Assembly: GCA_964013405.1 (NCBI GenBank)
Contig: CAXGWI010000005.1
Location: 3,411-67,410 of the forward strand
Reading direction: 5' to 3'
DNA length: 64,000 nt
DNA from: an uncultured Myxococcales bacterium
GTDB lineage: Bacteria > Myxococcota > UBA4151
Shown: in pieces, positions 32,055 through 50,782 of the stretch
Layout: every line of letters begins with the position of its first letter
Numbering within the stretch: position 1 is the first letter of the stretch
Translations under genes and position numbers: made by a program
The notes under the pieces: generated by a model
Seen by the model: the letters and a program-made list of their open reading frames with translations, nothing else
Database searches by the model: none
Told to the model about the DNA's origin: nothing

Positions 32055-33425
32055 ATGATTCGTGTCGTCTGTTTCGGGCTTGCCATGGTCTTCGTGATGG
32101 CTTGCGAAGACCCCGAGCCGCTCCCCCCCACGCCGGAGGAGTTGGCCCGCCTCATGGATCCCCAGACCTGTGGGGAGTGTCATCCGGCTCACCTCAGCGA
32201 ATGGGCTGGCTCGATGCACGCCTACGCCAGCGAGGACCCGGTATTTTTGGCCATGAACGCCAAGGGGCAGCGGGAAACCGGCGGGCAGCTCGGTTCTTTC
32301 TGTGTTCAATGCCATGCGCCTGTAGCCGTTCGCACGGGGGCCACGACGGATGGATTGAACCTGGCCGAGCTCCCGGCCGCTATGAAAGGGGTCACCTGTT
32401 ACGCCTGTCATGCCGTGTCTGCGGTGGAAGGAAGTCACAACAACCCACTGGTCTTTAGTGACGATGGTGTGATGCGAGGGGGCTTTGCCGACGCGGCTGA
32501 GAATCCGGTGCACGCCTCGAGCTACAGCAACCTCCACGACCGAGATCACCTCGCCAGTGCCGATCTCTGTGGCAGTTGCCATGATATCGTGAACCCTCTG
32601 GGTGTTCACCTCGAACAGACCTACAAAGAGTGGAAAGACAGCCTGTTCAGCGATCCGACCAACCCGGACCGCTCCACTTGTAATCGCTGCCATATGCCCG
32701 GTCGCACCGATGTGATCGCGGACTACGAGGGGGTGTCTTTGCGTCGCCACCATGATCACCGCATGCCTGGTGTGGATGTGGCCCTGACCCCGTTCCCAGA
32801 TCGGGAAGGCCAGCGGGCCGCAGTCCAGTTGAGCTTAGACACCACGCTGTCAGCCAGACTTTGTGTGGGTTGGGATGGGGAAAACACCCGTTTGTTGGTG
32901 CAGATGGAGAACATGGGCGCCGGGCACGCATGGCCCAGCGGTGCGGTTCAGGATCGGCGGGCATGGATCGAGATCATTGGTCACGAGGGGGATACCCTGC
33001 GTTTCTCCACAGGTCAGGTCGCCGATGGTGAGCCGATGACGAATCTCAAGGCTGAGGACCCCCAGATGATCACCTTTGGCGCCACGGGATACGATGCTGA
33101 GGGCAATGTGACCCATGACTTCTGGGATATGGTGCGCACCGAGTCCGATTTGATGCCTTCGCCTATCCCCCACCTTCGCGGGATCGATACGGGGGAAAAC
33201 CACCGCAACTACAACCTGTCCTTTCCGGGCGCCGTCGATCGGGTGGAGATGCGGGTGCGGTTGCGACCCATGGGCCTGGAGATCCTCCAGGAACTCATCG
33301 ATCATGAGGGCTTAGATCCGGCTGTGAAGGCGGCCATGCCGACTTTTGATTTGGGCTCAACGCGCCTGGTCTGGACCCCTGAAGCGGCCGACCAGAGCGG
33401 CTGCGTGCCAGCCCTTTCCCGCTAA
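32055..33425 (+). CDS. Multiheme c-type cytochrome lipoprotein (five CxxCH motifs)
   Basis: Lipoprotein-like signal LAMVFVMAC. Five CxxCH motifs: CGECH, CVQCH, CYACH, CGSCH and CNRCH. Confidence 0.75.
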   Translation: MIRVVCFGLAMVFVMACEDPEPLPPTPEELARLMDPQTCGECHPAHLSEWAGSMHAYASEDPVFLAMNAKGQRETGGQLGSFCVQCHAPVAVRTGATTDGLNLAELPAAMKGVTCYACHAVSAVEGSHNNPLVFSDDGVMRGGFADAAENPVHASSYSNLHDRDHLASADLCGSCHDIVNPLGVHLEQTYKEWKDSLFSDPTNPDRSTCNRCHMPGRTDVIADYEGVSLRRHHDHRMPGVDVALTPFPDREGQRAAVQLSLDTTLSARLCVGWDGENTRLLVQMENMGAGHAWPSGAVQDRRAWIEIIGHEGDTLRFSTGQVADGEPMTNLKAEDPQMITFGATGYDAEGNVTHDFWDMVRTESDLMPSPIPHLRGIDTGENHRNYNLSFPGAVDRVEMRVRLRPMGLEILQELIDHEGLDPAVKAAMPTFDLGSTRLVWTPEAADQSGCVPALSR

Positions 33426-33472
33426 AGTCTCGAAGCCCTTTTCCTTCGGCTCATTCAGCGCGAACAGCCCCC

Positions 33473-35418
<1,946 letters not shown>

Positions 35419-35422
<4 letters not shown>

Positions 35423-36342
35423 ACCCGCTCGGCAAACCAGGCCACGGTTTGCTGAAGGCCTGTTTGGAGGTCCATGCGGGGTGTCCAGCCTAAGCGCTCG
35501 GTCGCCAACTGATGACTGATCACGCTGCGACGCTGTTCCCCCGGCTTGCCCGGCGCGTAGGCGGGCTCGCCGTCATACTTGGCCGCATCGCCGATCACGC
35601 GGGCAAGTTCATTCACATCGGTTTCAATGCCCGTCCCGATATTCATCGATCCGGAGGCCTCGGGATGGTCGAGTAAACTCAGATAGCCGGCCACCACGTC
35701 GCCCACATAGACATAGTCTCTTGTTTGTCCCCCATCACCGAAGATGGTGGGCTGCTCGCCAGCGAGCATCTTTTGGCTAAAGATCGCGACCACGCCAGCC
35801 TCCCCATGGGGATCTTGGCGAGGACCATAAACATTCGCCAAGCGAAGGGCAGCGGTTCGCATGCCGCTGGTTCGCCCGAAGTAGTCTAGGTACTGTTCGC
35901 CGGCGAGCTTGGACAGCCCGTAGGGGCTTTCACTGCGACAGGGGTGGGACTCGGAGGCAGGATACTCGGACTGCTCGCCGTAAATGGCCCCCCCGGTACT
36001 CGCCATGGCAAAGAGTTGGCAGCCGCTCTCGGCGGCAGCCCGTGCAAGGGCAATGGTCCCCAGGACATTGACTTGGGCATCGAAAATTGGATCGGCGACA
36101 CTATGGCGCACGTCCATCTGGGCGGCGAAGTGAAAGACCGCATCGGGGGCAAAGTCCCGCAGGGCGTCGATCGCTTCCGGTTGGGTGATATCCAGTTGAA
36201 GAAATCGAGCTTGCTCCGGCAGGTTTGCCCTGCTGCCACGACTCAAGTCGTCGATGATGAGGACCTCATGCCCTCGGGCACAAGCGCCGTCTGCAAGGTG
36301 TGAGCCGATAAAACCGGCGCCGCCGGTAACGAGGGTGCGCAT
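35419..36342 (-). CDS. NAD-dependent epimerase/dehydratase (extended SDR, GalE/UXS-like)
   Basis: TGGAGFIGSHL dinucleotide motif. YGLSK is a YxxxK catalytic motif. GAGGAG lies 7 nt upstream of ATG 36342. The track ORF begins 5 codons earlier. Confidence 0.8.
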
Positions 36343-36366
36343 TTGAGATCTCCTCAAGCCAATGGT

Positions 36367-37473
36367 CTAGTCGAGGGCCGCGACGAGGGCATCTGTGACC
36401 CGTTGTTGCCAAGCAGCGACCGAGTAGATTTCCTGGGCTTGCTTGCGCGCTTTCCTGCGAATTCTTTGTAGTTTGGATCGATTCCGATCCCAGTCCTTGA
36501 GTGTGGCGACCAGTGCATCCACGTCCCGCCGTTCCACCACGCTGTCTTTGGCAACCGAGCCGAGGACGCCGCGGGCGCAACCCACATCGAAGCTGGCCAC
36601 CGCTTTGCCTCGGGCCATGGCCTCCAGCCAAACCAGCGGCAGGCCTTCTTGGATATGGGAAGGGAAGATGAGCACCTGGCTATCCTCCAGGGGCTCCCAT
36701 GCGGTTTCAGGGGGGCGCCGGCCGTGGAAATGAACCCGGTCCTTTAGTCCGAGGCTCTCGATCTTCCTGTGGATTTCCTGTGCATAGGTTTCCGATGAAA
36801 AGTTGCCGACCACATCCAAATGAACGCCGGGCAGTTGGGCCATGGCATCGACGGCATAGGTAAACCCTTTGATATGATGAATGTTGCCGATGTAGCACAG
36901 GCGAAACGGCCCCGTGTGTTTGAGGGGCTGCGGCGCGGGGATCGGCACCCCGTTAAAAACGGCCCTCCAGGGCACATGGGCTTCGATGAGCCCGCCAAAA
37001 GGGTGAAAGGACTCGTGTAAGAGGATGTTCATCCGCGCGTTGTTGAGCATGCGCCGATGGAGTTTGCGGATCACTGGGTGATCGGGCTGCCCCTCGTAGT
37101 TGTGGCCGATGCGTTCGTTGTGAATGTGGAGGCAATAGGGGACTCCACGTGCCTGGCACACTTGCATCAGTAAGGCATCGCGCAACACGGCCAGGCCAAA
37201 GAGACCGGGGGTATAATAGACCAGATCGACCCCCTTTAAGCGGCGCGCTAAGCGGGGGAACAACTGGACTGCTCTTTTGGCTTTGTTCAAAGCGAGCTTT
37301 CCGGTCGTTTCGATCTCCTTCATCGACTCAATGCTTTGAATTGGCAGGATATCGACATCAAAGGCCTCGTGTAGCGGGCCGCCGTCGAGCAGGCGCTGAT
37401 TCGAGACGCTGACACCGTGCGCTGGGGGCGGCAGGTGGCCGACAAACAGGAGCTTGGGTCGGGCTTTTGTCAT
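36367..37473 (-). CDS. Family 4 glycosyltransferase (GT-B, Glycos_transf_1)
   Basis: EGLPLVWLEAMARGKAVASFDVG is an EX7E-type GT4 C-terminal motif. Confidence 0.8.
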   Translation of the reverse strand: MTKARPKLLFVGHLPPPAHGVSVSNQRLLDGGPLHEAFDVDILPIQSIESMKEIETTGKLALNKAKRAVQLFPRLARRLKGVDLVYYTPGLFGLAVLRDALLMQVCQARGVPYCLHIHNERIGHNYEGQPDHPVIRKLHRRMLNNARMNILLHESFHPFGGLIEAHVPWRAVFNGVPIPAPQPLKHTGPFRLCYIGNIHHIKGFTYAVDAMAQLPGVHLDVVGNFSSETYAQEIHRKIESLGLKDRVHFHGRRPPETAWEPLEDSQVLIFPSHIQEGLPLVWLEAMARGKAVASFDVGCARGVLGSVAKDSVVERRDVDALVATLKDWDRNRSKLQRIRRKARKQAQEIYSVAAWQQRVTDALVAALD

Positions 37474-37686
37474 GGGGTAGCTAGGCCTTTAGCGGTGAGA
37501 TTGAGTCAAGGAGGTGAGAAGCACCAGATCCCGTTCAGAGCCTCTTCGCGGGGCAGGTACTTGACTCTCGGGGTCGGATCAAGGCTTGCGTGCCCTGTCT
37601 TTGGCCAAGGATTTGAAGCTTGTGTGCGAAAGCGGAGCCTAGGCGAATGGGCTGAGTCTTGGTTCACCGGGGCCGTCGCGCATCGC

Positions 37687-40050
37687 TTACGGCGCTGTTA
37701 GGCGAGCATCAAAACGCCAATCAGCATCATAAAATCCCGTCGCGACCAAGCCTCGGTCGCTCCAGGCGAGAAAGTCGGGGAAGCCGCTGCGACTGGAGTA
37801 GGGCAGGATCTCAAAGAGCAGGTCTTCTTTGCCGGTCGGCGCAGCGAGCACCGCCGAGAGCCGGCCGTCTTCCTCAAAGAGGGAGAAAAAGGCGCCGTCC
37901 CGTTGGCGCTGATCTCGATAGTAGATGCCCTCGTCATCCCAACGAAAAGGGAAGTCATCGGGGAGGTTGAGTTGGTCCTGGGGGACCGCCACGTAGATCG
38001 TGTTCCTGCCTGCATCGATGGCCTCTTGGCGCCGACTCATGGGCAGGGTGCATGCTTGTCCGTTGCCGATCACATTCCATTGACCCGCATGGTGGGCGGC
38101 CACAGCCGCGGCAGGCCCTCGGTCGTCATCACTGACGATGAAGCAGAAGGGGCGGCGATAGACTTCGTTGTAGGGGCCATGGACCCCAGGGCGCTTGCCG
38201 GTTTGGGGGCCATATTCGATGTCGCCCGTGGTCACTGGGATGACTTCACCGTCCACCTCAATCTCGGCGATACCCTTCGCCGTGAGGCCATCACCATCGA
38301 GGATCATGCTGCGGACGTTGACCGTCTCGAGGATGACCCGGTCAGCCTCCTGTCGGCTACGTAGTTCCAGGTCTGCCTCGGGGCTTAGCGCTGAGCGCAA
38401 GCGAACGTAGGCGTGATGTTCGGCGTAAGCAGCGTTCGGGCTGATGAAATCGAAGTCGAGTTCGAAGGGATCCAGGCTGCGGGCCTCCATGAAGTCGAAG
38501 AGGGGCTGCCAGTCGACGCAGTCGACGCCTTCGGAGACATCGCCGTTCCACCAATGCCCTTTGCCGGGCTCCTCATGGTAGGCAACATCATCCGTATGCT
38601 GGCGAGCCGCCTCCACGAGGTTGCGACCCTCTCGGACGGGCACATTGTCATCGGCGTCCGCATGGATCACGTAGACGCCACGCCGGGCGATGTTGGAGAG
38701 GTAATTCAGGGTGTCGGAGTGGGCCCGGGAGCGAGCAAAAAGCCCGCTGGGCCGCTGGGAGCCACCATAGGAATAAAAGCTCTCCCAGCCGGCGCTGGGG
38801 CCCAGCGTCGCAAAGCGGCCCGGCATCATGACGCCATTGTGCCAGGTGCCGTGTCCGCCCATGGAGTGACCGGTGACATAAACACGAGTGTCATCGATGT
38901 TGAAGCGGTCCATGGCGTTGTCGAGCGAGTGAAGGGCGTTGAAATGACCCCACTCCTCCCAGTCGAAGCCGAAGGGACGGCGGTTGGTCGCGGCGACGAC
39001 ATAGTTCCAATCCCGCTGAGAGTAACTGCGGGCCTGACCGATAGCTTCGACACTGGCCCCATGAAGGCTCAGAACCAGCGCATAGTCCCGCTCGGCGTCG
39101 AAGTTTTTAGGCGGTTGAACCCCGTAGTACTGCACCGAGCCATCTTGAGGGCTGATGAAGCTACGGCGATAATGTTTGGTGCTCTCAATGACGGTGTAAT
39201 CTTGTGTGTGCTGGTAGCGGTAGATGAGCCCATCTGCTTCCACCTCAATGGTGATGGGGATGACCGACTCTGGCCCGGTCCACGGCGCCTTCGGCCGGAT
39301 CTCAAAGGCCAGTTGCGTGAGGGTGTAGGAGCCCATGCCGGGAAACACCGTCGTGGTGGCTTCGACGTGGTCACTTTCAAGAACTCGGCAGCGAACATTC
39401 CCAAGCAACTGGGGCGTGATGTTGAGGACCGGCATGCCCAGATAGAGGGGGCTGCCATCCCCTTCCCGCAGGTCGCTGAAGGTGCGGTCTCGAGGATTGA
39501 AGATCAGTTCGTGGCCCGTGATAAAAAGTTGAATCTTGGCGTTGCCCCGGCCGCCCGTGAGTTGAGCGGCGATCAGGTGTTCGCCCGGTTCGTCAGCCAG
39601 GGGGATTCGGTGTTTGCCGCTGCCGTAAATATCCGCCGGTTGGGCCCGGCCGTTCACGTAGACCGTGTAGCCCCGATCCACCCGAGCAAACAGGCGTTCT
39701 CCTTCGCTTAGGTCGATTTTTGCGACCGCCCAATAGAGAGTCCGTTGGGAGGTGGGTAAATCCCCCTCTTCCGTCGCCCGAATCCGCTCCCAGTCGACGG
39801 CGTAGCGGCGATCGGAGCCAACCTCGGGGTACTCCAGGCGGTTCCAGCGCACATCCCGCTCTAAGGCCTGATTATCCGTGTTGCCGATACGTCCCAGCAT
39901 CCACTCATCGGGCAGGACCTGAATCACCTCTTCTTCGGGAGCCAGCTCAGGCCCCTTTGGCACGACGGGGCCGGCATCTTGCGCTGGTGTGGGCTCCTCG
40001 GCTGGACAGGCAGTGAGGAGGAGAAAGCAAAGGGGGATCAGGCGTAGCAT
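37687..40050 (-). CDS. Large secreted lipoprotein with alpha/beta-hydrolase (esterase/peptidase-like) domain
   Basis: GGGAG Shine-Dalgarno before ATG 40050. Signal MLRLIPLCFLLLTAC. Nucleophile elbow VTGHSMGGHGTW. The N-terminal ~400 aa and C-terminal ~230 aa are unassigned. The track ORF extends 31 codons upstream. Confidence 0.6.
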   Translation of the reverse strand: MLRLIPLCFLLLTACPAEEPTPAQDAGPVVPKGPELAPEEEVIQVLPDEWMLGRIGNTDNQALERDVRWNRLEYPEVGSDRRYAVDWERIRATEEGDLPTSQRTLYWAVAKIDLSEGERLFARVDRGYTVYVNGRAQPADIYGSGKHRIPLADEPGEHLIAAQLTGGRGNAKIQLFITGHELIFNPRDRTFSDLREGDGSPLYLGMPVLNITPQLLGNVRCRVLESDHVEATTTVFPGMGSYTLTQLAFEIRPKAPWTGPESVIPITIEVEADGLIYRYQHTQDYTVIESTKHYRRSFISPQDGSVQYYGVQPPKNFDAERDYALVLSLHGASVEAIGQARSYSQRDWNYVVAATNRRPFGFDWEEWGHFNALHSLDNAMDRFNIDDTRVYVTGHSMGGHGTWHNGVMMPGRFATLGPSAGWESFYSYGGSQRPSGLFARSRAHSDTLNYLSNIARRGVYVIHADADDNVPVREGRNLVEAARQHTDDVAYHEEPGKGHWWNGDVSEGVDCVDWQPLFDFMEARSLDPFELDFDFISPNAAYAEHHAYVRLRSALSPEADLELRSRQEADRVILETVNVRSMILDGDGLTAKGIAEIEVDGEVIPVTTGDIEYGPQTGKRPGVHGPYNEVYRRPFCFIVSDDDRGPAAAVAAHHAGQWNVIGNGQACTLPMSRRQEAIDAGRNTIYVAVPQDQLNLPDDFPFRWDDEGIYYRDQRQRDGAFFSLFEEDGRLSAVLAAPTGKEDLLFEILPYSSRSGFPDFLAWSDRGLVATGFYDADWRFDARLTAP

Positions 40051-40160
40051 AGGGGACTCCCGGGGAGGGGAAGGTAGCCCCAAGCCGGGGGCTTTTCCAC
40101 ATCTCCTTGACCCCCGCGTCCCCGCGGGGCAGGCGCAGACCAAAGGGAGTGAGGAAGCCC

Positions 40161-40397
40161 ATGGGTCTTGTCGGTATTCGTTTGGACGCCTTGAAAGCCC
40201 TGCTCGCTGCCGTTCACAATGAACAGTTGCCCTGCCCGCTCAGCCCCGATGCGCTTGCTTGTCAGGGCTTTCAGGACCTCAGCGAACAGATTCTTGCCAG
40301 TCTACGAGGCCTCGAAGAAGAGGCCGTTCGAGCGGTTCTTGTGGCGGTGATTGCCGAGCGTCTCTCCGTACTCGATCAGACCATCGGGTCCGCGTGA
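40161..40397 (+). CDS. Small hypothetical protein (79 aa) translationally coupled to the sirtuin gene
   Basis: GGAGTGAGGAAG Shine-Dalgarno 4-15 nt before ATG 40161. Predicted helical, with no signal peptide. The TGA stop (40395-40397) overlaps GTG 40394 of the Sir2 ORF. Confidence 0.4.
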   Translation: MGLVGIRLDALKALLAAVHNEQLPCPLSPDALACQGFQDLSEQILASLRGLEEEAVRAVLVAVIAERLSVLDQTIGSA

Positions 40398-41143
40398 GCC
40401 CAGCGGAGCACGTGGCTGCCTGGCTGCGTCAGGCGAATCGAGTTCTCTTCATCACCGGCGCAGGTTTGTCTGCCGAGAGTGGCTTGCCCACTTATCGGGG
40501 GGTGGGTGGTCTCTATGAGGACGCAGAGACCCCTGAGGGCCTGAGCATTGAGCAGGCGCTTTCTGGGGGCATGCTGCGCCGTGACCCGGCGCTGTGTTGG
40601 AAATACATCGCGCAGATCGAGAATGCCTGCCGTGGTGCGATGCCCAATCGGGCGCACGAGTTGATCGCCGCCTTTCAGGAACGGGTCGAGACCTGGGTCC
40701 TCACCCAGAATGTCGACGGGTTTCATGGTCAGGCTGGCAGCGATCACGTGATTCCCATTCATGGCGATATCCATGAACTCTACTGCCCATCATGTGGTTG
40801 GGAGGATTGGGTTCATGACTATGCAGAGCTCCCCATGCCGCCCCATTGCCCTCGCTGCCGAGCCATCATTCGGCCACGGGTGGTGCTTTTTGGGGAGATG
40901 CTGCCGCCGGCCGCCGTTGGATGCCTTAATCAGCAACTTCAACAGGGCTTTGATCTCGTCTTTAGCGTGGGCACGACCAGCGGCTTTTCTTATATCGCCC
41001 AGCCCGTGCTGATGGCCGCAGCACAGGGGGTGCCGACGGTGGAGATCAACCCAGGAGAGACGCCGGTGTCACCCCATGTCAGGCAGCGCTTTTCCTGCGG
41101 TGCTGTGGAGGCCTTGGAGGCGATTTGGGCGGCCTGGCGGTGA
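40394..41143 (+). CDS. cobB: NAD-dependent protein deacylase, Sir2 family (CobB-like sirtuin)
   Basis: GAGLSAESGLPTYRG. QNVDGFH. A Zn ribbon CPSCG...CPRC. VVLFGEMLP. VGTTSGFSYIAQP. The track ORF starts at 40259, but the N-terminal 45 aa are Arg/Ser-rich and overlap the small upstream ORF. A GTG at 40394 gives a canonical ~250-aa sirtuin. Confidence 0.8.
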   Translation: MSPAEHVAAWLRQANRVLFITGAGLSAESGLPTYRGVGGLYEDAETPEGLSIEQALSGGMLRRDPALCWKYIAQIENACRGAMPNRAHELIAAFQERVETWVLTQNVDGFHGQAGSDHVIPIHGDIHELYCPSCGWEDWVHDYAELPMPPHCPRCRAIIRPRVVLFGEMLPPAAVGCLNQQLQQGFDLVFSVGTTSGFSYIAQPVLMAAAQGVPTVEINPGETPVSPHVRQRFSCGAVEALEAIWAAWR

Positions 41144-41200
41144 TCCTTCTCAAGCCGCGCTAGGCTGACTCCTCACCAAGCTCCGACCCGACCCAACCCT

Positions 41201-43168
41201 TTAGGGACAGACGCCCATCCCGGGCGGCATGGGCATGCACCCACCCGCCATGCAGCAGGGGGTCTCTTCGGGGCATGGAGGGAGGCCATCGCCGCATTGC
41301 TCAAGGGGGCCAGGTGTGCAGACACCATCGATGCAAGTTCCGCCATCTTGGCAGGGGTTCTCCTCGGAGCATTCGTTCGGCGGTGCGCAGGCTCCAGTCA
41401 TGCAGACGAGGCCGTCGGGACACTCGGGCAAGCCATCGCCGCATTCCTCAAGAGGTCCGGGTGCGCAGATGCCGTCGATGCAGGTTCCGCCATCTTGGCA
41501 GGGGTTTTCATCAGAACATTCGGTCGGCGGTGTGCAGGCTCCAGCCATGCAGATTTCACCCTCCGCGCAATCGTCATCGGCTTCGCAGGGCACAGGGTCA
41601 CAGTTGGTCTCGTCGTAAATACAGCCACAAGCCATCATGTCGCAGCGGTCGATGGTACAGGCTCGTCCATCGTCGCAATCCAGATCACTCTTGCAAGCGG
41701 TACGGAGGTCTTGGGGAAAGACGGGGGGATCTACCTCTTCCGGGAATTCCACCCGGCGATTGATGGGGGAGCCACAGGTCACTTTGACCGTTGAAGATGG
41801 GTTCAATTCCGGGCCGACGATGCGTACATTTTGTGGGTTTTCGAGCACATGCGCTCTCGATAACTCGAGTGTCACCTGCCCAAAAGCCCGGGTTCGAGCG
41901 GTGCCGAGACCGTTATTGTCTGCTCGTTCTGTGTAGACGCTGTGCTCGGTTTTGACCTCGGGGGTCCCTAGGTTGTGCAGGGGTTGTCCGATGGTGAAGG
42001 TTTGAAAGGTTGCGACCGTGTTGTAATGACCCGCAAAGCGGCTATGTGCGACGCCGTCACTCCAGAAGCGGCCACTGTCGAGTTCGCAAGCAAGGCCAAG
42101 GCCAATACTGCAGCCTGGGAGTTCGAGGCCGCCCATGTTGACGCCGAAGGTGAGGTTGCAACTGACGGTGGGGGCTTGGGTACTGCAACTGATCGCACTG
42201 CCGCCGATCGCCGCCTTGCTTTTATCTTCCTGGGAGTAGTTCGTGCCACCAGAGAAGTCAGGGAGTCGAAGGGTGACCTTCGATTGTGCATTGGCATTTT
42301 GATTGCCTAAGAGGGGCAGGGTGGTGCTGTAAGCACGACTTTGCAAAAGGGAATTCGCATGAGATGTGCCACCGACTTGTACGGAGACCTGGCCGCAGGC
42401 ACCGGCTCCATCTTCGGCGAAAGCGCAGCGAAGGGCTGGGCTGACCGACCGGCGACAACTGTTGCCTGCTATGGCCGAAACAGAGCCATTTCGCGCGACG
42501 CCCATGCCACCACATCCCGCTGTCGATCGTTGCTCATTGCTATAGGCGTATCCCGTGCCTGTGCATGCCTCACCGACGCGGGCAAAACCTGCCGTAGGCC
42601 GATCCTCGGTGATGCTTTGCGGCGAGACGACAAAGCTGCAGGAGACGAGGCATTGATGGCATCGACCGACGGTGGCTTCGTTGGCGAGGACGGTTAGCGC
42701 CTGTGTTCCCAGAAGTTCCCGGTCTCTAAGGTAGGCACCGTAAAGAAAGGCATGGACTCGATTCGTTGGGTCGTAGGCGCGAAAATACACGAGGGCCTCG
42801 AACCAGCGCAATTGGCGGTCCATTCCCTGCTCCTCGAACTGGTCTGCGTAGGCCTCGATATTTTCATTCACACCCGGCGGCATCACGACCAGATGTTGAT
42901 GAACTCGGACCGGGCGGCTCACGCTTTCACCCAGGATGGAAATATCGCCTTGAGCAAGGGAGGCCATCATCGATTCGCTCAAGTCTGTGAGTCCTTGTCG
43001 TTCAAGGTACTCTTTCGCTGAGATGATCTCGCCAGCATCGAGCTGACTCGCCGTCTCATAAAGTGCCCCTTGGCTGCGACGTTCCCAGGCTGCAGGGGCA
43101 GTGGGCTCCTGAGGCAGCTGCTCAATGCAGCCTGTCAGCGTGATGGAAAAGACAATGAGCATCCTCAT
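41201..43168 (-). CDS. Large lipoprotein with C-terminal Cys-rich 49-aa tandem repeats (EGF/defensin-like disulfide modules)
   Basis: Signal with lipobox ITLTGC. The C-terminus contains ECSDENPCQDGGTCIDGICAPGPLEECGDGLPECPDGLVCMTGACAPPN repeated near-identically, ending ...GCMPMPPGMGVCP. Confidence 0.6.
   Translation of the reverse strand: MRMLIVFSITLTGCIEQLPQEPTAPAAWERRSQGALYETASQLDAGEIISAKEYLERQGLTDLSESMMASLAQGDISILGESVSRPVRVHQHLVVMPPGVNENIEAYADQFEEQGMDRQLRWFEALVYFRAYDPTNRVHAFLYGAYLRDRELLGTQALTVLANEATVGRCHQCLVSCSFVVSPQSITEDRPTAGFARVGEACTGTGYAYSNEQRSTAGCGGMGVARNGSVSAIAGNSCRRSVSPALRCAFAEDGAGACGQVSVQVGGTSHANSLLQSRAYSTTLPLLGNQNANAQSKVTLRLPDFSGGTNYSQEDKSKAAIGGSAISCSTQAPTVSCNLTFGVNMGGLELPGCSIGLGLACELDSGRFWSDGVAHSRFAGHYNTVATFQTFTIGQPLHNLGTPEVKTEHSVYTERADNNGLGTARTRAFGQVTLELSRAHVLENPQNVRIVGPELNPSSTVKVTCGSPINRRVEFPEEVDPPVFPQDLRTACKSDLDCDDGRACTIDRCDMMACGCIYDETNCDPVPCEADDDCAEGEICMAGACTPPTECSDENPCQDGGTCIDGICAPGPLEECGDGLPECPDGLVCMTGACAPPNECSEENPCQDGGTCIDGVCTPGPLEQCGDGLPPCPEETPCCMAGGCMPMPPGMGVCP
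41204..41600. repeat. 147-bp direct tandem repeat (about 2.5 copies) encoding the Cys-rich C-terminal modules
   Basis: Units starting near 41286 and 41433 are nearly identical at the DNA level (ccatcgccgcattgctcaag... and ccatcgccgcattcctcaag...). A degenerate partial copy follows. Confidence 0.6.
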
Positions 43169-43953
43169 GGCAAGGCTCCGCAGTCGCCCAGATCAACGCA
43201 GCTTGAGCCTCTGACACAGGCGACGACCTCGGGCGTCCATTGCCCTCGGCACTGCTCAAGACAGTCGCCGATGTCGGCACCGTCGATCACCGCACAGGCA
43301 TTCATGATGCCACAGGACTGCTCGCAGAGGTCGACGGGATCGAAACAAGGCTCAAGGGCATCACATGAGGCGGCCTCCACGCACGTTCGCAGGTCGGAAT
43401 CCCCCTGATCAGCGCAGTCCAAAATGCAGGTCTCACGGGTCACGGCGTCCCCCAAGCAACTCACGAGTTTATCGCAATAGCTTACGCAGGTCGTTTGCTC
43501 GGCCTCAAGGCATGCCGCAGCGTCCTCACAGGAAGCAGCCTCCAGGCAGTCGAGCGCGTTTTCGCTAAGGGCATCGCAGTGAAAGTTTGCTCCAAAGACA
43601 CTTTCATCGCCGCAGTTGTCACGACGGTTGCTGAGTGCGTGGCAGCGGTCCGCTTGGTTTTGGCGAAAGCAACTGCCCATTTGGTCGCAGGTTCTCTCTT
43701 TGAGACAGGTCAACTGCTCTGCAGGCACGGACGCGGTGCATTGACTCATACATTGCTCGTACATGGGGCCGGGGTCACCGCTGGTTTCACAGTCCGCCAT
43801 CCGAGCGCAGGCATCACCACAAGGACTGCCGTCGCTGAGAGGGACAGGCTCCACGGGAGGCGGCGGCTCGGCGGGACAGGCACTCCACACGATGAGCAGC
43901 GCAAAATGACAAGTGAGTCGTCGCAAAATACAGGTCTCCCGTCTTCTACCCAT
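43165..43953 (-). CDS. Cys-rich secreted lipoprotein (hypothetical), first gene of a two-gene operon
   Basis: Signal with lipobox LLIVWSAC. About 36 Cys in 262 aa, in CxxxxC patterns. The stop overlaps the start of the downstream lipoprotein gene (43165-43168). Confidence 0.55.
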   Translation of the reverse strand: MGRRRETCILRRLTCHFALLIVWSACPAEPPPPVEPVPLSDGSPCGDACARMADCETSGDPGPMYEQCMSQCTASVPAEQLTCLKERTCDQMGSCFRQNQADRCHALSNRRDNCGDESVFGANFHCDALSENALDCLEAASCEDAAACLEAEQTTCVSYCDKLVSCLGDAVTRETCILDCADQGDSDLRTCVEAASCDALEPCFDPVDLCEQSCGIMNACAVIDGADIGDCLEQCRGQWTPEVVACVRGSSCVDLGDCGALP

Positions 43954-44003
43954 ACCAGGCAGCTTCCAAAGTGACCAGATAAGGGTGAATTGCCCCCGAA
44001 GGA

Positions 44004-45122
44004 TCAGGGCTGTTCAGGCTGAGGTGGACCGCTGCCGACCACGGGGCCCGACCGCTTTGCATTGAGTTCAATGATGGGCGGAAACCGGCGGGATGCGCCC
44101 GGCGGTAGGGGGGCGAAACGATCCGCTGGGATGCCCCGGATTTTGAGGGCTGCGGCCACCTCTTCAAGGGGCTGGTCTTGTCCCTCCATCCCAAGCTTGA
44201 AGGTTCCATAGTGGACTGGGATCGCTGCGGCTGCGCCACACTCCACAAAGCCTTCGACGGCCTCATCCGGATTCACGTGGACCGAGCGCATCATGCCGTT
44301 GGGGAGATAAGCGCCGATGGGCATGACGGCTAAACGGGGTGGTCCGAGGCGCTCGAGGACTTGACGGAAGTGAGGGCCGCTGGCGGTATCGCCGGCGTAA
44401 TACATAAGGCCGCTGGGGGTCTGCAGGGCCCAGCCCATCCAAAGGGTTCGGTCTCGGTCGAAAAGCCCTCGGGAGGAGAAGTGCTGGGCTGGAATGCCAT
44501 GGAGGATGCGTCCCTCGCCGAGATCGAAGACCTGCCACCAGTCGGAAGCTTCGACCCGTTCAATCCCTGCATCTCGAACCAGGTGTTCCACGCCGAGGGG
44601 GACGAAGAGCCGGGCCGGGTGCTCATCCATCAGACGCTTGAGGGTGGGCAGATCCGTGTGGTCGTAATGGTTGTGACTGATCACGATGGCATCGATGGGT
44701 GGTAAATCCTCAAAGTCGATGCCCGGCGGATGAAACCGATGGGGGCCCGCAAAGGAAAATGGGCTCGCTCGATCAGACCAATGGGGATCGGTGAGCAGAT
44801 TGATTCCCTCGGTTTGAATGAGCACCGTCGAGTGGCCCACAAAGGTGGCCACCATCTCGGCGCCGTCGACTCGGTCTTGGGGCTTCGCCTTTGTCTCGAT
44901 CGCTCGGGGCGACCAGGTGCTGTTCTTCGTCTCCCAGGCCGTCTTCATCGCCCGGAGGGGATCCCGCAGGCGGGGTACTTGATTGATGAACTTTTTGCCG
45001 TCGAAGTTACGCTGCGTCGGGCCGTTGTGGCCCTCCGCACTTAAATGCCAGCCCACCAAAGCGGTCGTGAGCCCCAGGAGAACCAGACCCAGGCCGAGGA
45101 ACTTCAGAATGACTCGGATCAT
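44004..45122 (-). CDS. MBL-fold metallo-hydrolase (NAPE-PLD-like, Zn-dependent) with N-terminal membrane anchor
   Basis: HSTVLIQTEG...LLTDPHWSDRASP...IDAIVISHNHYDHTD contains the HxHxDH-type metal-binding motif. The start ATG 45122 overlaps the TrmH stop (ATGA). Confidence 0.7.
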   Translation of the reverse strand: MIRVILKFLGLGLVLLGLTTALVGWHLSAEGHNGPTQRNFDGKKFINQVPRLRDPLRAMKTAWETKNSTWSPRAIETKAKPQDRVDGAEMVATFVGHSTVLIQTEGINLLTDPHWSDRASPFSFAGPHRFHPPGIDFEDLPPIDAIVISHNHYDHTDLPTLKRLMDEHPARLFVPLGVEHLVRDAGIERVEASDWWQVFDLGEGRILHGIPAQHFSSRGLFDRDRTLWMGWALQTPSGLMYYAGDTASGPHFRQVLERLGPPRLAVMPIGAYLPNGMMRSVHVNPDEAVEGFVECGAAAAIPVHYGTFKLGMEGQDQPLEEVAAALKIRGIPADRFAPLPPGASRRFPPIIELNAKRSGPVVGSGPPQPEQP

Positions 45123-45793
45123 ACCGACCACTGGCTCCGAAAGCGTTGCTCGATTTCTGCCACATTGGGAATGACCCCGCGGCACCAATGGAGAAAAATA
45201 TCTATTTTTTCTTCCTCGCTGAGCCCCCAGTCGAGGCCGCTGACCTGGAGTCGAGTGCGTAGGTCATAGAGACCGAGGGCCACGCTGACCGAGAGATTAA
45301 AGCTCTCCGCAAAGCCATACATGGGCAGCCGGACCACGTGATCTGCCATCTCCAAAACCGTCTGGCTTAAGCCTGGCTTTTCTTCGCCGAAGCAAAGGGC
45401 CAGCGGTCGGTCGATGGGCAGATCGGCCAGGGTTTGATCGGTGTGCGGTGTGGTGGCGACCAGTTGATAGCCTTTGGCTCGCAGGGCCTCAAAGCAGTCC
45501 ACAGCGTTCGGGTAGCGAAAGGTACTCACCCAACGCTGACTTCCCATGGCGATGTCTTTATTGGGCTGAAAGCGGTTGTTCAACTCGATGAGGTGAAGAT
45601 CCTGGAGCCCAAAGGCATCGCAGGAGCGAATCACAGCGCTGGCGTTATGGGGTTGGAAGATGTTTTCGAGGACCACGGTCAGGTGGCGAGTGCGTTGATC
45701 GAGAACGTCTCGGAAGCGAGTCACTTTGTGCTCGCTGAGCCACTGGCCGCTCAGATGGGCCATCAGTGCCGCGTCGTAGTGTCGCTCCATCAC
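45119..45793 (-). CDS. trmH: tRNA (guanosine-2'-O)-methyltransferase, SpoU/TrmH family
   Basis: LTVVLENIFQPHNASAVIRSCDAFGLQDLHLI, plus the SPOUT C-terminal motifs (LALCFGEEKPGLS, NLSVSVALGLY). Confidence 0.8.
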   Translation of the reverse strand: MMERHYDAALMAHLSGQWLSEHKVTRFRDVLDQRTRHLTVVLENIFQPHNASAVIRSCDAFGLQDLHLIELNNRFQPNKDIAMGSQRWVSTFRYPNAVDCFEALRAKGYQLVATTPHTDQTLADLPIDRPLALCFGEEKPGLSQTVLEMADHVVRLPMYGFAESFNLSVSVALGLYDLRTRLQVSGLDWGLSEEEKIDIFLHWCRGVIPNVAEIEQRFRSQWSV

Positions 45794-45872
45794 GCTTTCG
45801 TTGCCCCCTGGGTCGACTTACCGTTGAGGCCAGGGCCTAGTCATGGTCAAGGCCTGCGCTCAGGAGATCATC

Positions 45873-46790
45873 ATGTCCATACGAAGCAAAGTGATCTGGA
45901 TGAACGGGGAACTCGTTCCTTACGACGAAGCCAACGTTCATATCCTCTCCCACACCCTGCATTATGGCTTGGGCTTGTTTGAAGGAATTCGCAGTTATGC
46001 CCAAGAGGGTGGTGGCGGCGGCGTCTTTCATTTGGATGCCCACTTGGATCGCCTCTACGACAGTGCCAAGATGTGCCACATCCAAGTGCCGGTTGCCAAA
46101 GAGGCGTTGCGCCAAGCCTGTCTGGAGACCCTGCGGGCCAACGACTTCGATGAAGCCTATATTCGACCCCTCATCCACTTAGGCCACGGGGCCATGGGCC
46201 TTGGAGCTCGTAGCAATCCCGTCCACGTGAGCGTGGCCACTTGGGAGTGGGGGGCCTATCTCGGCGCCGAAGGTCTAGAAAAAGGGATCAGCGTGGGGAC
46301 CTCCTCCTTTGCTCGCCACGCGGTGGGTTCGACCCTGCAGCGAGCCAAGGTCGTCGGCCACTACGTGAACTCGATCCTCGCTCGCTATGAAGCCAACGAT
46401 AATGGCTTCGACGAGGCGGTGATGCTCGACGCCACCGGCCTGGTGGCCGAGGGCACCGGCGAAAACATCTTCGCCATCAAAAACGGTGTGGTGAAGACCC
46501 CATCCGTTACCAATATTCTCGCCGGGATCACCCGCCGGACCGCGATCCAGATGTTGGAGCACCTCGGTTACACGGTGCAAGAGACCTTGTTTGGTCGGGA
46601 CGCCCTTTATGTGGCCGATGAGGTCTTCATGACCGGGACCGCTGCTGAGATCACGCCGGTGCGGGAAGTGGACCGGCGCCCGGTCGGTGCGGGGCAGCGG
46701 GGCCCGATCACCGAGGCCTTGCAGTCTCTCTATGCCGAGGGTGTTCGGGGTCGGGTCGACTGGATGCGGCCCATGATTACGACCTACTGA
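45873..46790 (+). CDS. ilvE: Branched-chain amino acid aminotransferase (PLP fold type IV)
   Basis: IWMNGELVPYDEANVHILSHTLHYGLGLFEGIRSY. The EGxGxNxF-type motif AEGTGENIFAIKNG. The track ORF starts at 45843. Confidence 0.85.
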   Translation: MSIRSKVIWMNGELVPYDEANVHILSHTLHYGLGLFEGIRSYAQEGGGGGVFHLDAHLDRLYDSAKMCHIQVPVAKEALRQACLETLRANDFDEAYIRPLIHLGHGAMGLGARSNPVHVSVATWEWGAYLGAEGLEKGISVGTSSFARHAVGSTLQRAKVVGHYVNSILARYEANDNGFDEAVMLDATGLVAEGTGENIFAIKNGVVKTPSVTNILAGITRRTAIQMLEHLGYTVQETLFGRDALYVADEVFMTGTAAEITPVREVDRRPVGAGQRGPITEALQSLYAEGVRGRVDWMRPMITTY

Positions 46791-49366
46791 TGGCTCGCTG
46801 GACGCTGATCGCCTGGCTCCTGTGTGGTGCGTGCGCTGCCTGTGAAGAAGAGCCGGTTCAAAATTCGATTGAGTTGAGCCAGGGCTCAACACGAGTGGTG
46901 GCGACATTCTCACCCTTTTCGCTCCAGGTTTTCGAGGGCGATCGCTTGGTGGGGCGGACCGCCGAGCGCGGTTGTCCAGCCCTTAGCTTGGCCTTGAAAG
47001 AGGGGACTTCTGCCGAACGTTTCCATGCCCCGGAAGAGCCAACGGATGACCTGACTTGGCTTGAGAGCGTCGATGCGGAGCGACAAGAAGACGGCAGTCT
47101 CCTCATCCCACTCAAGGGCGAACTCGAAGGGGAGAGCGCCCGACTCAGCCTCGCCCCGGGCCCAGAGGGCTTTGTCGACATCGACATTCAATTCACAGCG
47201 CCTCCCGAACAAATCGCCATGAATCGAATCTGCTGGCAGTTACGGGAGGGCGAGCACGTGGTCGGTGCCGGTGAACGCTTCGACGGTGTGGATCTCTTGG
47301 GCCGAGTGGTGCCCTTATATTTTGCCGCACCTCGAAACTACGCGTCCTCCACCAACGAGTCCCATGCACCGGTCCCGTTCTTCGCCACCACGGGGGGAAT
47401 GGCCGTGCTGACGGAGACCGAGCGGGTGGGCGCCTATGATGTGGGCGCCACCGATGCCGATCACCTGCGGGCCCTCTTCCATGGCGACCAGTTGCCCTTG
47501 CGCATCCGGGCCGGTCACATCCTCGATAATGCCGCGGCCCATGCTCGACGGATGGGCCTGCCCCCCAAACCACCCCGCTGGGTCCTTGCTCCCCAACAGT
47601 GGCGTAACGAACATGCGGTGACGGTGCGTAACGGTGAGGTCGTCTCCACCGGTCAGGATCGGGTTTTGGCCGATGCCCGTAAGCTTCGGGAGTTGGAGAT
47701 TCCCGGCAGCCTCATTTGGATCGATGCGCCTTGGTCGACGGGTCACAATACCTTTGAGTGGAATCGGGTTCAGTTCCCCGATCCCGATGCCATGTTGGCC
47801 GAACTGGAAGCATTGGGTTTCAACGCCATCGTCTGGGCTACAGAGCATATTAATACCTCTGACGATTCGGACCAGCAGGTTGGTATGCCCATCGAGGGAA
47901 GCCGGGAACTTTACGACCGCTTTGCTGAGGAGGGCTGGTTGGTCGAGGCACCGGATGGCCAGCCATTTCGCTTTCAATGGGGTCGGGGCTTTGGTGGTCA
48001 TGTAGACTTCTCCAATCCCGATGCGGTGGCTGCTTATCAGGACCTTGTTCGCCCTGTGCTTGAGCAGGGGATTCGAGGATTTAAGTTGGATTATGGCGAG
48101 ACCATGCGGGCGGACCTGCTCGGCATGGACAACCGAGCTGTCACCTTTCACGATGGGGCGGGCTCAGAGATTCACCACACTCGGTACAGTCGACTCTTTC
48201 ATGAGGCGATGATCGGGGTTTTGAAAGAGGTTCACCCGGACGATTGGTATGTAATCACTCGGACCGGGGGGATTTACGACACAAAGAATGGAATTACGCT
48301 CTGGCCTGGTGACTTAGACAATGACTTCCGGCGAGCCGGTGAGGTGGAAGAGGATGGACGCTTGAGCGTCGGCGGACTGCCGGCTGCAGTCAGTGCTCAT
48401 TTGAGCGCCTCCATGAGTGGCTATCCCCTCTATGGCAGCGACATCGGTGGTTACCGAGGGGGGCCCTCCAACACAGAGGTTCTCCTGCGATGGTCTCAGT
48501 TCGGCGCCCTCTCTACAGTGATGCAGTTGGGCGGCGGCGGCCGGGGCGACACGACCCATAATCCTTGGGATGAGAATCTCTATGATACCGAGATCGCCGT
48601 GCCGATCTACCGGACCTATTCTCAACTGCACATGCGACTGATGCCCACCATCGAAGGCCTGATCGACCGGGCGGTCACCGATGGAAGCCCACCGCTGGTG
48701 CCAGTGGGTGTTGCCGCCGGAGAAGTGGAGGCTGCTTGGGCGGACCAAGAGAGTTATCTCTTTGGGCCGGACCTTCTGGTGGCACCGGTGGTGGAAGCAA
48801 GCACCGAGCGCCGGCTGTTTGCGCCCAGTGGGCAATGGTTCAGTTGGTGGGATGACAGCGTGATTGAGGGCGGTCGGGCCTATGTGGTGGCAACACCTCT
48901 GGAGACGATGCCGATCTATCAGCGGGGAGGCAGCCTGCTGGCGATGACCGATCCCCGTCTCCGCACCGTTCTGCCCTATGCTGACGAAGATCTAGACCGT
49001 TATGGGAAGACCCTGTGGTTACGGGTGGTCCCCGGCCTCGCCGGCAACAAAAGTTGGCGCTTCGATGGAGCCTGGGGAGCCAGCGCTGGGCAGGGCAGCG
49101 TGACTGCCAGCCAGGTCACGACGGGGGCTCAGACAAGCATCAGCGTGAATCGATCCCAGCGGGGACGGACCGTCGTCGAACTGCGACTGCGTCCAGACAC
49201 CGGACCTGATGCCGGGGCCCAGGTGACCGCGGCGGGGGCGACGGTTCCCGAGGTGGCGGAAGACGACTTTTTGGACTGCGTCGCGCCCTGCATCGCTCGG
49301 GGCGATAACCACCTGTTGATCGCCGTCGATGGGGAGCGTCCACAGATTCAGGTGGGTCGTCCCTAG
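46790..49366 (+). CDS. Glycoside hydrolase family 31-like protein (alpha-glucosidase/alpha-xylosidase fold)
   Basis: Signal with Cys-rich leader. IRGFKLDYGETM matches the GH31 nucleophile block (FKTDFGE in YicI). YGSDIGGYRG matches the acid/base block (GADIxGF). The N-terminal WxDMNE block is degenerate (LIWIDAPW). Confidence 0.55.
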   Translation: MARWTLIAWLLCGACAACEEEPVQNSIELSQGSTRVVATFSPFSLQVFEGDRLVGRTAERGCPALSLALKEGTSAERFHAPEEPTDDLTWLESVDAERQEDGSLLIPLKGELEGESARLSLAPGPEGFVDIDIQFTAPPEQIAMNRICWQLREGEHVVGAGERFDGVDLLGRVVPLYFAAPRNYASSTNESHAPVPFFATTGGMAVLTETERVGAYDVGATDADHLRALFHGDQLPLRIRAGHILDNAAAHARRMGLPPKPPRWVLAPQQWRNEHAVTVRNGEVVSTGQDRVLADARKLRELEIPGSLIWIDAPWSTGHNTFEWNRVQFPDPDAMLAELEALGFNAIVWATEHINTSDDSDQQVGMPIEGSRELYDRFAEEGWLVEAPDGQPFRFQWGRGFGGHVDFSNPDAVAAYQDLVRPVLEQGIRGFKLDYGETMRADLLGMDNRAVTFHDGAGSEIHHTRYSRLFHEAMIGVLKEVHPDDWYVITRTGGIYDTKNGITLWPGDLDNDFRRAGEVEEDGRLSVGGLPAAVSAHLSASMSGYPLYGSDIGGYRGGPSNTEVLLRWSQFGALSTVMQLGGGGRGDTTHNPWDENLYDTEIAVPIYRTYSQLHMRLMPTIEGLIDRAVTDGSPPLVPVGVAAGEVEAAWADQESYLFGPDLLVAPVVEASTERRLFAPSGQWFSWWDDSVIEGGRAYVVATPLETMPIYQRGGSLLAMTDPRLRTVLPYADEDLDRYGKTLWLRVVPGLAGNKSWRFDGAWGASAGQGSVTASQVTTGAQTSISVNRSQRGRTVVELRLRPDTGPDAGAQVTAAGATVPEVAEDDFLDCVAPCIARGDNHLLIAVDGERPQIQVGRP

Positions 49367-49378
49367 GCCACCACTGCC

Positions 49379-50782
49379 GTGCTCTTCAACTCGCTTATCT
49401 TTCTTCTCTTTGCGGCGGTATTTTACGCCCTCTGGCTCGGTCCATTTCGCCACCGTTCGCCCCTGTTTCGTCAGGGCGTCTTGGTGGTCTTTTCTCTGGT
49501 TTTTTACGGCTGGTGGAAATGGGCCTACATCGGCTTGATTCTGGCCAGTGGGCTTATCGATTACACTGCGGCCCTGGCGATGAAACGCTGGCCGGCTAGC
49601 CGGCGCTGGGCCCTTTTCGCCTCGATTCTGGGCAACCTGGGCATTCTTGCAGCCTTCAAATACGCGGGCTTCCTGGCTGAGAATCTCGATCTGTTGGGCA
49701 AAAGCATCGGCCAGGACTGGGGGGTTCAAGGGGCCTTGCCCAGTTTGCTGGACACCCTGCCGGTCGGCATTAGCTTTTATACCTTTCAGTCCATGAGTTA
49801 CACCATTGATGTTTACCGTGGTCGCTTAGAACCCACGAGAAATATCGTTGGTTTCTTTGCTTATCTTAGCCTTTTCCCCCAGCTCGTGGCCGGGCCCATC
49901 GTTCGGGCTAGCAACCTCCTGCCACAAGTCCTGTTGCTGCCAAGCCCCCGACCGGAACAAGTGCGTGAGGGCTTCATTTTGGTCCTGTCGGGCTTCGTTA
50001 AAAAGGTCGTTCTAGCAGACCAACTTGCCCCTTATGTGGAGACGGCATTTGCCGGCGGTTCAACCACCGGGTCCCCCTTATATTGGTGGCTGGTCACTAT
50101 GATGTTTGCCGTGCAGATTTACGGTGATTTCAGTGGCTATACAGACATCGCTCGAGGCCTGGGCAAATGGATGGGTTTCGACTTTGATGTGAACTTCAAC
50201 CACCCCTATCTGGCCCGTAGCTTGAGGGACTTCTGGCGCCGCTGGCACATCAGCCTTTCCACCTGGTTTAGAGACTACGTCTACATTCCATTGGGGGGAT
50301 CCCGGCGGGGCGTCCTTTGGGGGATTGGTGCCATGGCGATCACCATGGTGGTCAGCGGTCTTTGGCACGGGGCCGCTTGGACCTTCGTGGCTTGGGGAGC
50401 GATTCATGCGCTGGTGCTCGCGGTGGAGCGCCTCGGTGCCCTCGAACGGCGACTGCCGCCGGTGCTCGTTCGCAGCTACACCCTGCTCGCGGTGCTGTTC
50501 GCTTGGGTGATGTTTCGAGCCGAGTCGATGGCCCAGGCTCAAGGCATCTGCGCCCGCATGCTCGGCTTGGGGGCGGAGCAGACGCCTTGGGGTCATCCGA
50601 TTTTTGGTCTCTTTCCCCTCAGCGTCCTCTTGGTTTTTGTCGCCTGGGAAGTAGCCGTGGCCCGACAGTGGCATCGCCCGCTGTTTCGCGACCGGCTCCT
50701 GCCCTGGACCCTGGCTGTCTTCGCCTTGATGGCCGTCTTTCTTCGTGGGCCGTCCGCCCAGTTTATCTACTTTCAGTTCTAG
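49379..50782 (+). CDS. MBOAT-family membrane O-acyltransferase (AlgI/PatA/DltB-like)
   Basis: Multi-TM protein. The conserved MBOAT histidine region FWRRWHISLSTWFRDYVYIPLGG is present. Confidence 0.85.
   Translation: MLFNSLIFLLFAAVFYALWLGPFRHRSPLFRQGVLVVFSLVFYGWWKWAYIGLILASGLIDYTAALAMKRWPASRRWALFASILGNLGILAAFKYAGFLAENLDLLGKSIGQDWGVQGALPSLLDTLPVGISFYTFQSMSYTIDVYRGRLEPTRNIVGFFAYLSLFPQLVAGPIVRASNLLPQVLLLPSPRPEQVREGFILVLSGFVKKVVLADQLAPYVETAFAGGSTTGSPLYWWLVTMMFAVQIYGDFSGYTDIARGLGKWMGFDFDVNFNHPYLARSLRDFWRRWHISLSTWFRDYVYIPLGGSRRGVLWGIGAMAITMVVSGLWHGAAWTFVAWGAIHALVLAVERLGALERRLPPVLVRSYTLLAVLFAWVMFRAESMAQAQGICARMLGLGAEQTPWGHPIFGLFPLSVLLVFVAWEVAVARQWHRPLFRDRLLPWTLAVFALMAVFLRGPSAQFIYFQF

Follow-up and report, generated by a model that had tools for sequence, protein, structure and literature searches.

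Within the window, as we call the whole 64,000-nucleotide stretch of DNA from an uncultured Myxococcales bacterium analysed here, the longest open reading frame (ORF) of a Sir2-family gene overlaps a short ORF that lies on the same strand in another frame. This locus raises the question of which reading of the overlapping segment is translated, where the sirtuin begins, and whether the short ORF encodes a functional partner of the enzyme or a protein that shares no more than an operon with it.

Gene boundaries at the overlap

The ORF list starts the Sir2 gene at TTG 40259, giving a product of 294 aa. Direct reading of the sequence together with the same list delimits a small ORF running from the ATG at 40161–40163 to the TGA at 40395–40397, which comprises 79 codons with the stop included and encodes a product of 78 aa. 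The TGA shares two bases with a GTG at 40394–40396 that belongs to the reading frame of the Sir2 ORF. The features of the locus are as follows.

40051..40160, no strand: divergent intergenic region of 110 nt that separates the small ORF from the S9-peptidase-like gene (minus strand, ATG at 40050)
40145..40157, plus strand: Shine-Dalgarno-like purine run GGGAGTGAGGAAG, found by direct reading and ending 3 nt before ATG 40161
40161..40397, plus strand: small ORF of 78 aa plus TGA, with a coding signature, homologues, an AF2 model and a link to DrmC
40259..40393, plus strand: Arg/Ser-rich leader of 45 codons with which the longest Sir2 ORF begins; spurious and non-coding, it lies in frame +2 relative to the small gene
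40394..40397, plus strand: GTGA stop/start overlap (spacing of -4) made of the sirtuin GTG start and the small-ORF TGA stop
40394..41143, plus strand: predicted CobB-type NAD-dependent protein deacylase (Sir2 family) of 249 aa from the GTG, based on Pfam, NCBIfam and homologues

The GC content at codon positions 1/2/3 of the small frame (0.75/0.42/0.60) is coding-like, with a profile similar to that of the sirtuin (0.68/0.49/0.68) and to that of the upstream gene. The same arrangement is found in a Myxococcota MAG contig (L001, GCA_036154515), in which the small protein is 82% identical to that of the window, and the 52 nucleotide differences between the two small ORFs are distributed 12/4/36 over the three codon positions (chi-square p = 1e-7). 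Read in the small frame, 28 codon changes are synonymous and 14 non-synonymous; in the two other frames the synonymous and non-synonymous counts are 3/38 and 5/37, and stops are acquired. The 78-aa gene, an SD-like purine-rich stretch and the GTGA junction occur together in seven further contigs (L001–L004, L007, L090 and L091). Moreover, independent gene callers had placed a separate 78-aa gene, followed by Sir2 with a 4-nt overlap, in L001–L003, L090 and L091. Cumulatively, divergence biased to third positions, closure of the sirtuin frame in relatives and the independent gene calls mean that the small ORF is a real gene, and its status as more than a product of chance is confirmed.

The 45-aa leader of the longest Sir2 ORF is an out-of-frame shadow of this small gene and an annotation artefact. 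Its frame has a GC content by codon position of 0.58/0.78/0.40, which is not coding-like. In L001–L004 and L007 the sirtuin frame is closed five codons upstream of the GTG, so that a long leader is impossible in these relatives. In the window, L090 and L091 the frame is open for 57 codons, and the TTG lies 45 codons before the GTG.

Two other readings of this segment were weighed. At 61% GC long spurious ORFs are frequent, and the small ORF could on that ground be taken for a chance open frame in GC-rich DNA with no gene behind it; however, the divergence between the window and L001 is biased to third codon positions, the family profile finds matches down to E = 1e-21 among 1.8 billion proteins, the AF2 fold is confident and the independent gene calls concur. 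The substitution pattern, the profile matches and the fold rule this reading out, and we hold its probability to be practically nil. The long ORF might alternatively be real and yield a long sirtuin isoform with a basic N-terminal extension that overlaps the small ORF out of frame. Long and short isoforms of CobB are indeed documented, Salmonella CobB-L being 37 aa longer (PMC8556138), and in the window, as in Salmonella, an Arg-rich stretch can be read in frame upstream of the catalytic core, within the 57 open codons seen in the window, L090 and L091. Unlike the basic extension of the Salmonella enzyme, however, the stretch in the window is another gene read out of frame, and five relatives have a stop within it; its frame is without purifying selection and has an atypical GC2 of 0.78, no SD precedes TTG 40259, and the closest sirtuin homologue among the matches listed (P0156, 96% identical) is called at 249 aa. 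With the frame closed in relatives and no coding signature, a conserved, translated N-terminal extension is refuted, and we consider a long isoform extremely improbable.

The sirtuin starts at GTG 40394 rather than at TTG 40259 and, judging from its sequence, would be an ordinary CobB-type deacylase, a new member of a well-known family. It matches Pfam PF02146 (E = 2.9e-36) and scores 256.6 bits against NCBIfam NF001753 (NAD-dependent protein deacylase; cutoff 243), a match that runs end to end, with sirtuin residues 4–247 on profile positions 3–246 of 252. Its best solved relatives are Sir2Af1 and SIRT5. With these class III-like deacylases it shares, besides the full-length match above a curated cutoff and the length of 249 aa, the motif GAGxSxxSGxPxxRG (here GAGLSAESGLPTYRG), TQNVDG (in TQNVDGFH), the catalytic His of IHGD (in IPIHGD) and a CxxC...CxxC zinc ribbon (CPSC...CPRC). 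Alignment A5 shows no variation in the motif cores or at the catalytic His; of the four zinc-ribbon Cys three are likewise invariant, and the first Cys of the second CxxC is Ala in P0227. There are 5670 sirtuin homologues at E < 1e-40, and the 120 of them listed span 246–290 aa, with N-termini that are short and unconserved. The sirtuin of the clade shows no clade-specific change except its short N-terminus.

In SIRT5 and CobB a Tyr-x-x-Arg pair reads succinyl- or malonyl-lysine. The window sirtuin differs from these enzymes in that the desuccinylase pair is absent: both the Tyr and the Arg of Sir2Af1 are matched by Ile in the HMMER alignment, and the segment KYIAQIE is kept in its place in the aligned orthologues. 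The acyl specificity of this abundant sirtuin group is therefore not obvious. As a side observation from alignment A5, the sirtuin and six aligned homologues share K(Y/H)IxQIExACRGA at this position.

Upstream of ATG 40161 the purine run is composed of GGGAG (40145–40149) and GAGGAAG (40151–40157), and a GGAGGGAGGGGA run stands at the equivalent position in L001–L004 and L007. The sirtuin GTG is preceded only by a GGG/GGGG run 6–9 nt upstream. Given this weak motif and a start that overlaps the small-ORF stop, the sirtuin is most likely made by termination-reinitiation. RNA folding of the junction (40340–40440) gave a minimum free energy at the level of shuffles (z = 0.01), which provides no case for an occluding hairpin. 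The GTGA overlap is kept in 8/8 clade loci. Keeping in mind that NTGA is by far the commonest spacing between co-directional prokaryotic genes (PMC12548453), the overlap alone says little on function.

The divergent intergenic region (40051–40160) is presumably the site of the promoter; as a sigma-70 consensus scan finds no site there, this can only be inferred. The combined sigma-70 and terminator scan gave one promoter-like site in the small ORF and one terminator-like site in the sirtuin, both at chance level, and an Rfam scan of 39800–41400 matched nothing. In alignment A2 the block 40090–40113 (GGCTTTTCCACATCTCCTTGACCC) is near-invariant relative to the L001 lineage (L001–L003). A second near-invariant block relative to L001–L003, GGGGCAGGCGCA, lies at 40126–40137, the rest of the divergent intergenic region having diverged. 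Both blocks may be promoter or operator elements, although the sigma-70 scan called neither.

Cumulatively, these results bear out the original prediction in that the Arg/Ser-rich leader was implausible, that the TGA overlaps a GTG giving a sirtuin of canonical length, and that the deacylase-type zinc ribbon and NAD motifs are kept. The separate helical protein that it proposed from ATG 40161 behind a ribosome-binding site also stands, as a gene with a purine-rich SD and a helical AF2 fold, with its length corrected from 79 to 78 aa.

The small protein and its relation to DrmC

The AF2 model of the small protein is a four-helix domain (pLDDT 91.1) with helices at residues 8–19, 29–34, 38–48 and 53–76. 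Pfam, NCBIfam and PHROGs gave no match for it, and one relative had a PHROG match at E = 0.044. In a profile search of PDB sequences no match was better than E = 0.19, and Foldseek against the PDB found nothing under E = 4.5. A second weak match to the family in the window, near 12522–12617, is noise (i-E = 3).

A profile of the family, run against 1.8 billion representatives, retrieved 195 sequences (at 50% identity) with E < 1e-3, among them 99 with E < 1e-10, mostly 70–100 aa long. A second search yielded 802 clusters at 90% identity; the 120 of these that were listed have no Pfam domain recorded and are all named 'hypothetical'. The family includes proteins of Sandaracinus amylolyticus, Plesiocystis pacifica, Enhygromyxa salina and Pseudenhygromyxa, and its genome matches are Myxococcota almost throughout. 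Seven MAG records (L083, L021, L057, L061, L063, L069 and L080) are labelled Klebsiella pneumoniae, Enterobacterales or Enterobacteriaceae; the gene in them is of Myxococcota type, at 63–74% GC, and the labels are very probably wrong.

In a 35-sequence alignment of the family P26, E66 and R67 are invariant and C25 is the majority residue (21/35), within the overall motif LxxLLRxV...LxCP...GL...LRGLD..VRAVLVAVLAER. K12, the sole lysine of the small protein, is K in 15 and E in 11 of the 35 members. This poor conservation counts against the role of a conserved acyl-lysine substrate.

A few longer proteins carry the family domain at their N-terminus: three are DISARM class I DrmC PLD proteins, with scores of 148–152 bits against NF038319 (DISARM_DrmC_I; cutoff 133) and a PLDc_2 match, and two have a cupin. 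The PADLOC profile for DrmC, PDLC02597, was matched by 6/6 close family members over profile positions ~16–74 (best E = 1e-5). An hhalign comparison of the family with DrmC-type proteins, which had been chosen for matching the small-family profile, aligned 75 columns at a probability of 99.3% (E = 2.4e-20). The small protein and the DrmC N-terminal domain (NF038319; PDLC02597) thus have ~75 homologous residues in common, including LxxLLRAV, LxCP(L/I)T, GL, LxGLD and AVxAVLxAVLAER.

The small protein is a stand-alone version of the domain of ~75 residues with which DrmC begins. It differs from DISARM class I DrmC in standing alone, without the PLD/HKD domain: it has no PLDc match in Pfam, it ends after the helical domain, and it does not match NF038319 at E <= 0.1. 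The locus differs from DISARM class I likewise, with no helicase, DUF1998 or methylase domains in the genes scanned ~8–10 kb to each side. DrmC has been reported to be dispensable for DISARM (PMC9142583), and the literature that we found on DISARM contains no description of this DrmC N-terminal domain. The small protein is a member of an undescribed family whose sole link to known biology is that domain. The homology and structure search suggested by the original prediction has therefore connected a family of ~800 clusters to DrmC, and found no match in the PDB or Pfam.

Distribution and surroundings of the pair

The small gene, the GTGA junction and Sir2 were found together in eight loci belonging to two lineages, one comprising the window, L090 and L091 and the other L001–L004 and L007. 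The paired loci are confined to close relatives, in which the small protein is 82–91% identical or more. Between the lineages the small proteins differ by ~18% and the sirtuins by ~20%, with pairing and overlap kept.

Among 86 family loci, Sir2 was near the small gene only in L001–L004 and L007. Since gene calling based on GC3 misjudged some neighbours (for example, an antisense ORF over the window sirtuin), the absence of Sir2 was judged by tblastn with the sirtuin, while the identities of neighbours rest on Pfam and deposited gene calls. By this search, no Sir2 lies within 6 kb at any of 79 more distant family loci (L005, L006, L008–L086; small protein 37–57% identical where identity is reported). 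In the other direction, two sirtuin orthologues (61–65% identity), P0163 (L087) and P0227 (L088 and L089), lie at three loci on long contigs and have no small-family member in the fetched flanks. By these sequence comparisons, the pair is limited to one narrow clade of marine Myxococcota, and the original prediction, which had named lack of conservation as grounds for refuting it, largely falls short on this point.

Elsewhere the family has varied neighbours. All-against-all clustering of neighbouring ORFs gave no family in more than 8 of 85 loci, and the most frequent downstream family among the same-strand neighbours scanned was COX15/CtaA (6/32). The other same-strand downstream genes encode SLFN AlbA_2 (3), Smr, a KAP NTPase, a RecA-like protein, a GNAT, a histidine kinase and a metallophosphoesterase. 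In about a quarter of the distant loci, some with unverified ORFs, the small gene has an NTGA overlap with whatever gene comes next.

Some of these arrangements deserve mention as observations in their own right. In Sandaracinus amylolyticus (L095 9001–16657, L092 3501–7234) the small gene is the first of three in an operon whose genes overlap by 4 nt, and the 78-aa protein is followed there by a 575-aa HATPase_c_3/sacsin-like GHKL ATPase and then by a 1899-aa protein without a Pfam domain; this operon resembles a conflict-type system, though an uncharacterised one. In Plesiocystis, Pseudenhygromyxa and Nannocystaceae bacterium ST9 (L093 3501–4597, L094 3501–4627, L033 6001–7021) an Smr-domain protein follows the small gene, and a neighbour cluster found at eight loci, represented by Enhygromyxa salina L053, has an Smr-like end and is jointly the most recurrent neighbour family. 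In a single case (L051 2181–3049) the family gene overlaps by 4 nt a GNAT acetyltransferase, an enzymatic activity opposite to that of a sirtuin; taken with the sirtuin coupling in the window, it might point to a connection with protein acylation.

The neighbourhood in the window is a housekeeping one and not a defence island. On one side the locus borders on the S9-peptidase-like lipoprotein gene, which is divergent, and on the other on a gene for a Cys-rich lipoprotein, which is convergent. The scan from 32055 to 50782 covered genes for an acyl-CoA synthetase, an epimerase, a glycosyltransferase, the S9 peptidase, Cys-rich lipoproteins, an MBL-fold hydrolase, sugar-modifying enzymes, an SpoU methylase, an aminotransferase, a GH31 enzyme, an MBOAT protein and others. 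Among them, about 8–10 kb to each side, there were none of the DISARM neighbours drmA, drmB, drmD and methylase, nor was a macrodomain, HerA, pAgo, TIR or other defence gene found nearby.

Two further observations concern the flanks. An acetyl-CoA-synthetase-like gene (ACAS_N + AMP-binding + AMP-binding_C) lies on the plus strand at 33473–35419, ~4.7 kb upstream of the sirtuin, and Acs is the classic CobB substrate; several opposite-strand genes lie between the two, so that this proximity may be coincidence. On the other side two Cys-rich genes (41201–43953, minus strand), encoding a 655-aa lipoprotein-like protein with DUF7107 repeats and a 262-aa protein, separate the sirtuin from the MBL-fold hydrolase. 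This pair is missing at the corresponding position in L001, where the sirtuin adjoins the hydrolase gene, and L090 has genes of 655 and 211 aa in the same place.

Readings of the pairing

With the pairing limited to one narrow group, we favour an ordinary operon over a conserved sirtuin-partner system: two genes that are co-expressed without an obligate functional partnership, a reading to which we give a probability of about 0.7. Both cistrons would be carried on a single transcript. The first (40161–40397) would supply a 78-aa cytoplasmic four-helix protein that lacks enzymatic motifs and is probably a small domain of the adaptor or binding type. The second (40394–41143) would supply a 249-aa CobB-type NAD-dependent lysine deacylase, most likely translated mainly by ribosomes that end on the small ORF and reinitiate at the GTGA. 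The juxtaposition of the two genes, which sets this sirtuin apart from other CobB-, Sir2Af1- and SIRT5-like deacylases in having an overlapping small gene before it in this clade only, would have arisen recently.

The original prediction had suggested that the small protein is a partner of the sirtuin and may be its substrate or regulator, and it could still have been taken on within this clade to regulate the sirtuin, to serve as its adaptor or to be its substrate, with the -4 overlap enforcing matched synthesis of a heteromer. Adjacency and the GTGA overlap persist in 8/8 clade loci across lineages whose proteins have diverged by ~18% and ~20%. Complex subunits are encoded by gene pairs with a -4 overlap more often than expected, according to Huber et al. 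2023 as cited in PMC12548453. Another family member, at L051, is coupled to a GNAT, and absence of the pair elsewhere would be compatible with an interaction limited to the clade. However, Sir2 is found at 0/79 distant family loci and sirtuin orthologues occur without the small gene, the single Lys of the small protein is unconserved, the sirtuin is unchanged in the clade except for its short N-terminus, and NTGA is the default operon spacing (PMC12548453). With the pair seen in close relatives only and K12 unconserved, we find a clade-specific partnership unlikely. A broader form of the same idea is that the domain is a portable adaptor, fused to the PLD of DISARM DrmC and serving as a coupled leading cistron for Sir2, GNAT, Smr, the GHKL ATPase with its giant protein and SLFN/AlbA_2. 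That it is such an adaptor seems to us quite unlikely; equally doubtful is the corollary that it directs or gates these enzymes on a shared target, in which case it would represent, in the window, a new regulator of a CobB-type sirtuin.

The original prediction also drew a comparison with macrodomain/SirTM modules and some anti-phage systems, in which sirtuins are coupled to small partner proteins. Like SirTM-macrodomain operons and the anti-phage SIR2 systems (Thoeris ThsA, DSR, SIR2-HerA and SPARSA), the locus places a Sir2-fold protein in a small operon, but it differs from them in having no macrodomain, GcvH-L/LplA2, HerA, pAgo or TIR neighbour and in encoding a sirtuin that has the zinc ribbon and length of a deacylase and no match in PADLOC. 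The comparison therefore did not hold. The link to DrmC suggests another route to defence, in which a DrmC-N-like module, fused or coupled, would bring effectors (PLD nuclease, Smr, GHKL ATPase with the giant protein, SLFN/AlbA_2, KAP NTPase and Sir2) to one shared target, for example DNA, and the window locus would be a minimal two-gene defence-like module. The fusion to the DISARM DrmC PLD is consistent with this, as are the tight operons with HATPase_c_3 and the 1899-aa protein in Sandaracinus and with Smr, SLFN AlbA_2 and KAP NTPase. In contrast, the sirtuin is a canonical zinc-ribbon deacylase that has no PADLOC match and whose close orthologues number in the thousands, the commonest downstream family is CtaA/COX15 (6/32), the histidine kinase, the phosphoesterase and the cupin fusions are not defence-like either, and the neighbourhood is a housekeeping one. 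We therefore regard this conflict-system role as very unlikely at the present locus.

We thus retain the ordinary two-gene operon as our reading, and for sirtuin biology the locus gives no sign of a new regulatory principle. The analysis corrects the gene model, moving the sirtuin start to GTG 40394 and restoring the 78-aa gene, and errors of this kind, in which an upstream overlapping gene is swallowed by the longest ORF, recur in GC-rich genomes. It also defines an unannotated small-protein family of ~800 clusters in Myxococcota. If the N-terminal domain of DrmC were an adaptor common to a defence nuclease and assorted enzymes, this family would offer a handle on DrmC in DISARM.
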